From Octopus sinensis (Eukaryota), in contig NW_021835480.1 in NCBI RefSeq assembly GCF_006345805.1, positions 37,735-101,734 on the forward strand: DNA of 64,000 bases. The letters are read 5' to 3'. How positions within the stretch are numbered: position 1 is the stretch's first letter; every line of letters begins with the position of its first letter. Below are positions 8,807 through 37,469 of the stretch, piece after piece. Below the pieces are notes generated by a model, which was given only the letters and a program-made list of their open reading frames with translations, ran no database searches and was not told the origin of the DNA. A program made the position numbers and the translations under genes.

Positions 8807-8925
8807 TGTTTCTTTATTAGCCACACAGGGCTGCACACAGACAGAACAAATTACAAGGTAGAGCTTTCCTTTTGAGGGTAAAAAAAAAGGGGGTTGGTTT
8901 TCGATCAAAAGGGATCGTAAAAGGA
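8807..8925 (-). mobile_element. Very short 5'-truncated copy of the Tx1/L1-like LINE (3' end only) inside (GATA)n
   Basis: Closely matches the 3' terminus of 35826-36888. (GATA)n on both sides. Confidence 0.85.
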
Positions 8926-9526
8926 TAGATAGATAGATAGATAGATAGATAGATAGATAGATAGATAGATAGATAGATAGATAGATGGATGGATAGACGG
9001 ACGGATAAACAAAAAGACAGACAGAGAGATAGATAGGGAGTGGGAGAGAAAGAGAAACATGGGGCGGCGAGAGAGTGATGGACAGACAGGCAAACAGATA
9101 GATATGTAGACAGATAGATAGGTAGATAGATATGTAGAGAGAGAGAGAGAGAGAGAGAGAGAGAGAGAAAAAGAGACAGACAGAGACAGAGAGGCAGAGA
9201 GACGGAGAAAGAGATACATACATACATGCATACATACATACATACATTACAACATACATACATACATACATACATACATACATACAAGCACATCTAGAGA
9301 GAGAGGAGAGAGAGAGAGAGAGAGGGAGAGAAAGACTGAGTGAGAGAAATGATGATGGAGAAATGAAGAGACGGATGGATGAACGGATTCGTGGATGGCT
9401 CCAAAGGGTGAGGGAAACATGAAAAAAGAAGAACAAAAAAATTTTCAAACTGGAAAATGTATAAATGTTATCATGGAAGCACACTGATCAGCATTCATTG
9501 TATGGTACAAGAGGAGTGGCAGCTGC

Positions 9527-10165
9527 TTTTGGTAGTGGTAGTGGTAGTGGTGGAGAAGGAGGCGGCGGTGGCGGTGGCGGCGTCGGAGGCGGCGGAGGCG
9601 GCGGGGACCCGGGCGGGAGGCAGGCGGCGGCGGAGGCGGAGGAGGATGGCAGTGGCGGCGGAGGCGGCGGAGAGGCGGCGGGAGGCGGCGGAGGCGGCGG
9701 AGGCGGCAGTGGCGGCGGAGGCGGCAGTGGCGGCGGAGGCGGCAGTGGCGGCGGAGGCGGCGGCAGTGGCGGCGGAGGCGGCAGTGGCGGCGGAGGCGGC
9801 AGTGGCGGCGGAGGCGGCAGTGGCGTTGGTGGTGGTGGTGGTGCTGCTGCAGCCGGTGTTGTATATGCTGCTCTTGTATTGTTGCTGCTAATATTACTGT
9901 TGCCGCAGCTTAAAGATGATGATCATAATAATGATAGTGGTGGTATCGGTGGTGGTGGTGGTGGTGGTGGTGGTGGTGGTGGTGGTGGTGGGTGGTGGGT
10001 GGTGGTCGGTGGTGGTGGTGGGGTGGTGGGGTGGTGGTGGTGGTGGTGGTGTGGTGTGTTTGTGTTGGTGGTGGTGGTGGTGGTGGTGTAGTGGTGGTGG
10101 TAGTGGTGGTGGTGGTGGTGGTGGTGGTGGTGGTGGTGGTGGTATCGGTGGTGGTGGTGGTTTTC
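9527..10165. repeat. GC-rich (GGC/GGT)n repeat with ~18-bp GGCGGCGGAGGCGGCAGT units
   Basis: Direct inspection. Confidence 0.9.
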
Positions 10166-12384
10166 GGTGTGATGGTCTTGTCGGCGGTAATGATATACCT
10201 GTGGTACGTTTGTGATTTCTTTAAAACATTCCTTACTCGTGTGTGTGTATGTGTGTGTGTGTATTAAGTGTGTGCATATACATCTTTTTTAAATATGCGC
10301 ACGCATATATTTGCACACGCATTTGTTGAGTACGTGTGTGTGCATACGTGTTCATTTGTTGTAATACTACACACAAAAACACATTATATATAATATATAT
10401 ATATATACACACACACACAAAAACATACATGCATACACACATACATACATACATATAGAGGGGAGCTATGAGTGAGCTATATATCTATATACATTTATAT
10501 ATCCTTTTGTGCATATATAAATGTATATATATATATATATATATATATATATATACACACACATGCATACACATAAACATCCACACAAACGCCTATATAT
10601 ATATATATATATATATATATATATATATATATATATATATATATATATATATATATATTATATATATACATACATACATACATACATACATACATACTAC
10701 ATACATATAGAGAAGAGCTATGAGTGATATATATATACATTTATATATATTTATGTGCATATATATATAAGTGTGTATGTATATATATATATATATATAT
10801 ATATATATATATATATATATATATATATATATATATACGTGCATACATACATATATATATACATACATATATATATATATATATATATATATATATATAT
10901 ATATATATATATATATATATACATATATATATATATATATACATACATACATATATATAATATACATACATATATACATATATATATACATACATATATG
11001 TATATATATATACATACATACATACAGATATACATATATATATATACATACATACATATATATATATATATATATATATATATATATACCTATCTATATA
11101 TAATATATATATACATATATATTATATGTATATGTATGTATATATATATATATATATCCATTGAATCATTCTGATCAGCTTCGATTCTTTTGATACATGA
11201 ATAATTGCTGCTTATGTGTATTCTTACGTAAAGGCATTGGCTTCTTGCTTGGAACGTCATTTGGCATCTTGTCAAAAGCGGAGGTAAAGAAAGAAGCGAG
11301 ATTATACCATGATTGGTGGAGGGAAACGTAAGAGTTACCTTGACTGGCCTGTGAGATTCTGTGAGATAGAAGGATAGACATACAAATAAAGAAAGAGTGT
11401 GTGAGCGTGTATACTGAGGAGGAGGAGAGGAGACCGAACCGAAAGAGAGAGAGGGAGAGAAAAACAACAATAACGAAAGAAACTAATTGCTAACCATCCT
11501 TGTCAAACATCTGCATTTGCTTTTTATGGTTGTCTTTGCTGTTGCTGTTGTTGCTGTTGTTGTTGTTGTTGTTGTGGTTGTGCTTGTTATTGTAATTTTT
11601 TTTTTTTTTTTTTTTTTTTGCATTGAATGCAACGCCGGTTTTCGACGCAGACAAGCATAACAGCAATATTTGAACCGGCATTGACAACTGAGAAAAAGGG
11701 GATATTTTTTGTTTACTTCGTATTATTTCACATTATATATATATATATTTCTTTATGGTTTTTGTATATATACATATACACATGTGTGTATGTGTGTGTG
11801 TGTGTGTGTGTGTGTGTTTGTGTGTGTGAGTGAGTGTGTGCGTATGTGTGTGAGTGAGTGTGTGTGTGTGTGTGTGTGTGTGTGTGTGTGTGTGTGTGTG
11901 TGTGTGTCCTTTCTTACAGCATCAAATGTAATTCCTCAGGACTTACTCTCCCCAAGCTGAATATGGAATTCAGAAATTGTATGTTGTTGTTGTTGTGATG
12001 ATGATGATGATGATGATGATGATGATGATGATGATGATGATGGTGGTGGTGGAGGTGATGATGATGATGGTGATGATGATGATGATGATGATGATGACGA
12101 CGACGACGACGATGACGATGATAGTTTCGAGGAGGAAAACAATCCGTTGTTCTCGTTCTTGGAGTGGTTAGTTGTTGTTGTTGCTGCTATTGCTGCAGCT
12201 CTTGTTCTTCTTCACAGGTCGGAGTGACTGACGTCAAGTAGACCTATGATTGATCAAATGCAATCCAGCCATGACTGTGTATCTTATTTTTTTTTAGGCA
12301 TAATATATCAAAGACTACATTCATCAATGAGTTCCTTCATTTTATTAAGACGACTAGGGAAGTTCATGAAGGTAATTGGCTGCT

Positions 12385-35825: not shown

Positions 35826-36888
35826 TGTTTCTTTATTAGCCACACAGGGCTGCACACAGATAGAACAAATTACAAGGTAGAGCTTTTCTTTTGAAGGGTT
35901 AAAAAAAGAAAAAAAAAGGAAGGGGGGAGTTTCGATCAAAAGGGATCGTAAAAGGAGAGAAAGAGGTCAAAAAAGGGGGGGTTAAAAAAAAGGGGGGAGA
36001 GGAAAAAAAATTGATCAATAGGGATCGTTATCACAGAAATGTCAATATGAAGTGTAATGGGGAGGACAGGTGAGGTCTACCCGTGGAAAGAAAAGCCTAC
36101 GGAAAAGACCACGGTAACCTCGGTCAATGAAGTCACATTTTATATTTCTTTTTTTTTTTTTTTTGCAAATAAGCAACTCTCTGTTTTCGATTTCTGGGTT
36201 CATTGGACTATGCTCAAGGTGGCTTCGTCATTCATACGTGCCATTCTTGCTACATTCACCCATCTTTTTTTAAAACATTCGCTAGACAAAACTTGCCTCT
36301 CTACTCTCACTTTCCTTTTCAAGTGGTACTTGAAGAAGTTGATGAGAGATTGACCAGAGAGGAAAGTGTTTGTCTCCAATCCTTTCAGACGCGTCCACCA
36401 GATACATTCTTTCGCCATAGCCACAAGGATGATGAAAATAGCTCTTCCTTCCCGTTTGAAGGAAGGAGGCGTGACAATATTGACGATAGACTCAGCTGAT
36501 AAACCGACTCGTCCCACACGTGACAGCAGTTGTTCGACATAAGCCCACAGGTCGGAAATTGTTGGACACTGAACGAGTGCGTGCAGAACGGTTTCGTCGC
36601 TCTGACCGCATCTCGGGCAGGTCGGCCCCGTGTTTCTCGAGCCGTGTCTGTAGAGCTTATCCCGAACGGGTAGCGCTTCTCGGTAGCACTGCCAGGCCAG
36701 GGATCTCTGGAAGTTGTCCATGGGCCCTGGCCCGAAAGTCATCCTGAACAGGCGGGTCAGGTACTCCTCGTCGACGTCCAGGTTCGCCCCGAGCTCGTCG
36801 TCGTACCTCCCCTCCACTAAACCCCTATAGAATGCTTTGGTTGTGTTGAAGTCACTTAAGGTCGACCCAGGACGGCAGAGTTGCTTGA
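35826..36888 (-). mobile_element. 5'-truncated L1/Tx1-clade LINE (C-terminal zinc-knuckle region plus 3' UTR) inside (GATA)n
   Basis: Open frame of ~229 codons ending at 36200, with RSLAWQCYREALPVRDKL..CPRCGQSDETVLHALVQCP (CX2CX8HX4C, L1/Tx1 type). ~375-bp 3' UTR ending AATAAAGAAAC. (GATA)n on both sides. Confidence 0.88.
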
Positions 36889-36930
36889 GATAGATAGATA
36901 GATAGATAGATAGATAGATAGATAGATAGA

Positions 36931-37469
36931 TTTCTTTATTAGCCACACAGGGCTGCACACAGACAGGACAAAATTACAAGGTAGAGCTTTTCTTTTGGGG
37001 GTAAAAGAAGGGGGTTTGGTTTTCGATCAAAAGGGATCGTAACTGGAAAGAAAGAGGACAAAAAAGGGGGGGGATAAAATAAAATTTAAAAAAAAGAAGG
37101 GTGGAGGAGGTGAGGAAAAAAAGGGGGAGGTGAGGAAAAAAAAGAGAAAGGAAAAGAATTGATCAATAGGGATCGTTATCACAGAAATGTCAATATGAAG
37201 TGTAAAGGGGAGGACAGGTGAGGTTTACCCGTGGAAAGAAAATCCTACGGAAAAGACCACGGTAACCTCGGTCTATGAAGTCACATGTCATATTTCTTCT
37301 TTTTTTTTGCAAATAAGCAACTCTCTGTATTAATTTTTACGGTTCATAGAATCATAGTCAAGGTGGCTTCGTCATTCATACGTGCCATCCTTGCTACATT
37401 CACCCATCTTTTTTTAAAACATTCACCAGACAAAACTTGCCTCTCTACTCTCACTTTCCTCTTCAAGTG
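36931..37469 (-). mobile_element. Third, independently truncated copy of the same LINE inside (GATA)n
   Basis: Same 3' end, diverged UTR, different 5' truncation point, (GATA)n on both sides. Confidence 0.88.

Follow-up and report, generated by a model that had tools for sequence, protein, structure and literature searches.

The window analyzed here, a 64,000-nucleotide stretch of Octopus sinensis DNA, contains three fragments of a long interspersed nuclear element (LINE), hereafter family A, each embedded in (GATA)n repeats. This repeat is very probably the target of family A and not merely its tail, because TATC, the same repeat read on the element strand, adjoins 74/93 truncated 5′ junctions against a background of 1–3%, because the opposite repeat orientation occurs in 0/99 copies, and because target-site duplications start at TAT. 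The specificity is a strong preference and is not absolute. Family A works like the fish elements Kibi and Koshi, with a target that is not on record in the literature covered.

Copies in the window

All three copies are 5′-truncated and lie on the minus strand. Copy 1 (8807..8925) consists of the last 119 bp of the 3′ untranslated region (UTR); copy 2 (35826..36888) is 1063 bp long and covers the C-terminus of the second open reading frame (ORF2) and the 3′ UTR; and copy 3 (36931..37469, 539 bp) carries the end of ORF2 and the 3′ UTR. An open frame in copy 2 (36202..36886, minus strand) encodes the last 228 amino acids of ORF2, with a zf-RVT (CCHC) domain (PF13966, E 2.3e-8). The 64-kb window reaches no further into ORF2 than this, and endonuclease coding sequence is not present in it. 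The 3′ end common to the three copies, GGCTAATAAAGAAA(CA), runs directly into (TATC)n without poly(A), and the 5′ ends lie at three distinct points of the element.

Arrays of GATA, read on the plus strand, flank every copy on both sides in identical orientation. The repeat survey placed them at 8574..8806 (bordering copy 1 on its 3′ side, with TATC on the strand of the element), 8924..9036 (bordering copy 1 on its 5′ side and decaying away from it), 35692..35825 (at the 3′ end of copy 2, including a GACA stretch) and 37470..37571 ((GATA)25 at the 5′ junction of copy 3), with a (GATA)10 spacer at about 36889..36930 separating copies 2 and 3. The latter two copies share 93.7% identity over aligned columns (447/477) and differ by indels and in their last bases; they are therefore separate insertions. 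The original prediction, made from the letters of the window alone, had described the same positions, shared 3′ end, missing poly(A), three 5′ ends, bilateral arrays, independence of copies 2 and 3 and absence of an endonuclease, and the sequence agrees with it on each of these. Perfect GATA runs of at least 4 units make up 1.5% of the window, and three further GATA arrays (4482–4881, 33322–33464 and 46312–46430) are free of the element. Past copy 3, the array flips into an inverted (CTAT)n stretch at 37572–37602.

Genome-wide flanks of family A

The genome searched (G000; 2.72 Gb, 13,516 contigs) was screened with an exact 25-base 3′-end pattern of family A. The pattern returned 6,744 exact matches, its reversed control 0, and in 2,593/3,329 forward-strand matches TATCTATC came within the next 8 nt; the tally for the reverse strand counts matches twice and was left aside. 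The flank sample consisted of the first 100 matches in the list, consecutive on one contig (C1, 0.8–37.5 Mb) and chosen blind to their flanks. Their 5′ ends were mapped against natural copies; one of the 100 adjoins an N gap and was left out (n = 99), and two full-length 5′ junctions were corrected by hand. The strict 5′ test demanded two TATC units in the 16 nt before the junction, and the loose test used a 32-nt window. Truncation affected 93/99 copies, with a median length of 475 bp, and 6/99 were full length. Full-length 5′ ends were kept out of the main count because transcripts may start in the upstream repeat of the donor.

TATC adjoined the 5′ end in 71/99 sampled copies by the strict test and 77/99 by the loose test, and in 69/93 and 74/93, respectively, of the truncated copies, against background rates of 1.0–2.2% (strict) and 1.3–2.8% (loose). 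At the 3′ end, the repeat was found in 77/99 sampled and 72/93 truncated copies. An element counts as microsatellite-specific by Kojima’s criterion when one repeat type occupies more than 20% of its flanks (PMC4494074); the truncated copies of family A exceed this share at both their 5′ (74/93) and 3′ (72/93) junctions.

No copy (0/99) had the opposite repeat orientation at either end, and the phase of the 3′ junction is fixed: directly past the last three bases of the element came TATC in 84/100 copies, TATT in 6 and TATA in 3, with 93/100 junctions starting TAT. The identity of the last base goes with subfamily (GCT with ACA in 54 copies, GCC with ACT in 37), and this base therefore belongs to the element. 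Arrays at the 5′ side measured at least 26 nt in 63/99 copies, exceeding every duplication seen, and at least 40 nt in 56/99; 9/99 copies had a long 5′ array yet less than 12 nt of repeat at the 3′ end. Stacking, scored as the 3′ end of another copy within 500 nt upstream, was observed in 12/100 copies. The genome-wide scoring of flanks proposed with the original prediction thus came out in its favour.

Junctions and target-site duplications

Ten duplication candidates of 11–25 bp were identified, at imperfect arrays and off-target sites; matches at larger offsets were treated as chance hits of repeat on repeat and excluded from the count. Nine of the ten start 2–3 nt past the key 3′ motif, at TAT, with no added repeat. 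Off-target copies lack a (TATC)n tail, and their element end is mostly joined straight to the duplication. The duplication of one copy takes in both the last part of a 20-unit array and the unique bases next to it, and so points to an array that existed before the insertion. Some targets are short, with 1–3 units.

Element structure and classification

Family A is a LINE of 6.1 kb with two ORFs and the 3′ end AATAAAGAAAC(A/T), without poly(A). Recovery of a full-length copy with an endonuclease, also called for by the original prediction, succeeded: a natural copy of 6,142 bp lies on the minus strand at G000:C8:55645803-55651944, with TATC arrays on both sides and more copies stacked in that array. 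By Pfam, ORF2 of family A contains an apurinic endonuclease-like (APE) domain (PF03372), a reverse transcriptase (RT; PF00078) and a C-terminal zf-RVT (CCHC) domain (PF13966); a frame of 1,141 codons is kept in one natural copy, with a frameshift only near its end. ORF1, upstream of ORF2, extends over 614+ codons and gave a weak zf-CCHC match (E 0.004) under the Pfam cut-off. Short (GGAC)n or (GACA)n units open the 5′ end of four full-length copies (L153, L158, L159 and L145), among which similar ORF2s are combined with at least two distinct types of ORF1.

On its ORF2 sequence, family A is placed in the L1 group of retrotransposons lacking long terminal repeats (non-LTR retrotransposons), because the ORF2 match to human L1 ORF2p is colinear and far better than that to R2, and because the catalytic motifs align. 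ORF2 of family C, a sister family described below, matched human L1 ORF2p (8sxt) over residues 4–856 with E 5e-61 and R2 with E 3e-20; PDB covers few clades, so that this proximity to L1 is a coarse test. The PDB matches listed for ORF2 included no R1Bm or TRAS1 endonuclease. The conserved catalytic motifs of the endonuclease align with those of the L1 endonuclease (L1-EN), and its hairpin loop has the L1 length and falls 2 residues short of the Tx1L graft of 2v0r; the extended loop of Tx1L type is thus missing, a feature that may not define the entire Tx1 clade. No protein named as a Tx1 element was among the matches listed in the homologue searches, and matches in the ESM Atlas were generic APE–RT clusters only, without taxa. 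Family A is likely a member of the Tx1 clade, and we refer to it as a putative one.

The closest named homologue of ORF2 is from Argonauta hians (63% identity); two from Acanthosepion pharaonis share 44–51%. Nineteen public runs under 7 organism labels contain at least half of the sampled family A words, and the family is therefore common to close relatives.

Sister families B and C

Two further families were found by searching the same genome with homologues from other genomes. Family C has 288 exact 3′-end matches. Its locus L240 (G000:C4:151976000-151984000) carries an open ORF1 of 746 codons and an open ORF2 of 1,159 codons, and other copies are 89–99.6% identical to it. TATC was present at 25/30 of its 3′ ends and at 6/6 resolved 5′ ends, with 24 unresolved; very young copies lie within TATC arrays of hundreds of bases. 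With open frames in both ORFs and copies that are almost identical and lie in long TATC arrays (L240 and L238), family C is the foremost candidate for an element that is active today.

Family B, with 239 3′-end matches and an ORF2 of 1,145 codons, is found at a different repeat. Its copies (L231, L230 and L233; G000:C5:65688800-65696500 and others) often stand head-to-tail with 5–9 ATT units between them. The 3′ ends adjoin (ATT)n in 29/30 cases and TATC in 0/30; the 5′ ends adjoin ATT in 17/30, comprising 9/9 copies of at least 5.3 kb and 8/21 shorter ones, against an ATT background of 0.5–1.5% at 5′ junctions. No convincing duplication was found for the 13 truncated copies of family B without 5′ ATT. 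Family B thus prefers ATT, less strictly than family A prefers its own target, and the repeat may in part be a tail. Conversely, ATT stood at the 3′ end of 1/100 family A copies.

ORF2 identity is 82% between A and C, 70% between A and B and 72% between B and C. Across the endonuclease, the pairs with different targets share 66% (A–B) and 69% (B–C), versus 80% for the pair with the same target (A–C), and three endonuclease loops other than the hairpin clearly differ between A/C and B. In a quick, midpoint-rooted tree, with support from the Shimodaira–Hasegawa-like approximate likelihood-ratio test (SH-aLRT) only, seven partial rows and no named reference elements, A and C form a group (SH-aLRT 100) that excludes B, all within a clade that includes the Argonauta protein.

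Proposed mechanism and alternative explanations

How LINEs target microsatellites is poorly understood (PMC3812793). For family A, we consider endonuclease-first targeting rather probable: the APE endonuclease would nick the GATA strand, and the RT would copy the RNA from that nick. The first nick would fall in fixed phase on the strand opposite the element sense, leaving a 3′-OH after ...GATA on which the RT would prime, and a second nick about 11–21 nt downstream would yield the duplication. The endonuclease would be the main target determinant by analogy with Tx1L, whose endonuclease nicks almost exclusively its own target; the hairpin loop of L1-EN probes the target (PMC1950540). The transcript would probably start in the flanking repeat of the donor and read through into it at the 3′ end, and a few TATC units thus carried by the RNA would probably aid priming. 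Among the contig ends listed, those from two runs tentatively taken as RNA, and possibly DNA, run past the 3′ end into the repeat and not into poly(A). Because target remains on either side of every insertion, an array can be hit again.

Several observations weigh against targeting of this kind. The exact 3′-end motif favours younger copies, and the flank sample comes from a single contig. TATC was found at neither end in 13/99 sampled copies (12/93 truncated), and 6/99 were tail-like, with a long 3′ array and nothing at the 5′ end. A search for allelic empty sites with the unique flanks of copy 1 and of copies 2/3 matched only the window and an unrelated repeat. Four additional TATC units separate the element from one of the ten duplication candidates, and in one full-length copy at an off-target site a TATC-like stretch lies between its 5′ end and the duplication. 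RT-region identity, 88% for A–C and 81% for A–B, follows the same order as endonuclease identity, so that the higher A–C value for the endonuclease also just tracks relatedness, and the hairpin loops of family C (TATC) and family B (ATT) are identical except for one residue (S/T). Because of the extra units before one duplication and the TATC-like 5′ head off-target, some repeat probably travels in family A RNA, and tail and target are then not exclusive. The original prediction is amended on both counts: GATA specificity stands as a strong preference and falls as an absolute rule on the 12/93 truncated copies, and the repeat stands as a target, while the off-target full-length copy with its 5′ head speaks against the target being the sole role of the repeat.

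Repeat carried in the RNA is also what one would expect if the RNA tail were the guide, a reading we regard as possible and rather doubtful. Nicks would then be made loosely at TA-containing sites, the 3′ repeat of the RNA would select those that can be primed, and the target would be inherited from the donor array. The near-identical hairpin loop across TATC and ATT families fits this reading, as do the extra TATC units, the off-target 5′ head and the contigs that continue into repeat; so does the TAT that opens the family A 3′ junctions, which ATT repeats also contain, alongside the TA found at 27/30 junctions of a tail-sharing short interspersed nuclear element (SINE). RNA–target pairing is listed as a possible extra determinant for L1 (PMC1950540). 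The RNA-guide reading is opposed by the off-target copies, which mostly join the element end straight to the duplication without added repeat, by the other endonuclease loops that differ between A/C and B, and by the rarity of target cross-over (the single family A copy with 3′ ATT), although a donor in another repeat should easily found a new-target lineage. A broader version, to which we likewise give limited credence, is that an L1-group LINE radiation in octopods may have split the microsatellites (TATC for A and C, ATT for B, TA-rich sites for the SINE) with nearly the same endonuclease loop and the RNA repeat as guide; if so, a swapped RNA tail would redirect insertion.

That the element itself makes the arrays, by insertion at short TATC-like sites followed by expansion of duplication and tail, is improbable: targets of just 1–3 units and the missing empty allele for copy 1 and copies 2/3 are in line with it, but 5′ arrays of at least 40 nt in more than half of the sample, the duplication spanning the end of a 20-unit array with unique neighbouring bases, the presence of very young family C copies within arrays that already measure hundreds of bases, and the common occurrence of empty GATA arrays (three in the window) all argue the other way. 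Random insertion with retention of microsatellite copies through selection or low recombination has been invoked for Drosophila Waldo-A and Waldo-B (PMC3812793). For family A such passive accumulation is very hard to credit, being contradicted by the single orientation and fixed phase of the repeat and unable to yield different repeats for sister families within one genome. Equally remote is a (TATC)n that is purely an element-encoded 3′ tail, with ordinary DNA at the 5′ flanks. Element-encoded 3′ repeat tails do occur in some CR1, L2 and RTE elements, and the 77/99 copies with 3′ TATC, together with the 6/99 tail-like ones, conform to such a scheme; the TATC at truncated 5′ junctions and the tail-free off-target copies refute it for family A. 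For family B, a tail is a partial option, with ATT at just 8/21 truncated 5′ ends.

Relation to known elements and significance

Known microsatellite targets of LINEs include TC (Kibi), TTC (Koshi), ACAY (Waldo), AC (Mino) and TAA (Dong) (PMC3812793), TG (Togen; PMC4640811), and TTCC/TTTC, preferred by a crocodilian Tx1 group that includes Tx1-1_Crp (PMC4494074). Kibi and Koshi, from the Tx1 clade of teleost fish, are likewise APE-type non-LTR retrotransposons in microsatellites (PMC4494074, PMC3812793), and we liken family A to them by target habit. It is neither Kibi nor Koshi proper: its target is (TATC)n/(GATA)n and not (TC)n, (TTC)n or any pyrimidine-only repeat, and its host is a cephalopod. 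With the crocodilian group it shares a tetranucleotide preference in an APE-type LINE (PMC4494074), but the repeat unit and the phylum differ, and the octopus sisters split between TATC and ATT. Waldo, Mino and Dong are microsatellite-targeting non-LTR elements too, and the Dong repeat is that of family B (PMC3812793); in contrast to these, ORF2 of the octopus lineage matches L1 best and R2 far less. Waldo and Mino belong to the R1 clade and Dong to the R4 clade, which has a restriction-like endonuclease. Human L1 ORF2p (8sxt) is colinear with the octopus protein across APE, linker and RT and has a hairpin loop of equal length; L1 itself has poly(A) and a weak TTAAAA preference (PMC3812793), whereas family A has no poly(A) and a strong repeat preference.

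L1-Tx1 elements have expanded in coleoids (PMC8967140), and annotation of Octopus vulgaris lists 80 L1-Tx1 families, 13 of them recently active, and 60 L1 families (PMC13282606). Family A is probably among these 80 or 60. The words “target” and “GATA” are absent from the main text of that paper, and no target analysis was seen in it. No GATA/TATC-targeting LINE was found in the literature covered, which took in few subscription papers and neither Repbase nor Dfam, where a catalogue entry may exist.

With family A, the few LINEs recorded as targeting microsatellites gain a (GATA)n target class and a cephalopod host group. Three close families (70–82% ORF2 identity) with open frames and two targets in one genome form a natural system for studying target switching, and since they coexist in this way, swaps of endonuclease and tail could tell target choice by the protein from target choice by the RNA. 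Because many animal genomes are rich in GATA repeats, an integrase directed to GATA would be of interest for gene delivery. LINE fragments are often present within the GATA arrays of these genomes, a point of relevance to repeat annotation and to the use of microsatellite markers.

A tail-sharing SINE and further relatives

The 3′ tail of a SINE-like repeat is homologous to the last 40–50 bases of the LINE. This SINE occurs in the window at 5713–5754 (plus strand) and, on the minus strand, at 28293–28334, 12577–12618 and about 12393–12435; a search of the genome with the pattern of its tail gave 46,025 exact matches. Among 30 sampled 3′ flanks, TATC or ATT repeats were found in 0/30, and the junction starts with TA in 27/30 (TAGG 17, TATA 7). 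The SINE shares the tail of the LINE, not its target, and its mobilisation is probably due to a different member of the LINE lineage.

An older relative, L040 (G000:C20:1537100-1547000), has about 80% DNA identity and a different 3′ UTR and ends in (TATC)n; a family A copy follows it in one shared array. A scan of prokaryote genomes returned 38 loci of a relative with 40–43% identity (L162–L199, contigs CAXXMW01), titled as a metagenome-assembled genome (MAG) of Arenicella sp. Its copies follow one another head to tail at a spacing of about 6.5 kb, and the junctions checked showed no microsatellite. None of the 10 loci inspected among the 38 had TATC at the 3′ end, and the target is therefore not shared that far out. 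These loci are probably eukaryotic host DNA mis-binned as a bacterial MAG. Protein P0018, labelled MAG Herbaspirillum sp., is 62–64% identical to family A ORF2 and falls in the same tree clade; it is likely host contamination. A metagenome scan for loci of relatives gave 108 pattern matches, 0 of them confirmed.

An Rfam search of the window returned no match. Positions 9558–10161 are occupied by GC-rich, triplet-like GGCGGC/GTG repeats that are atypical of the otherwise AT-rich window.

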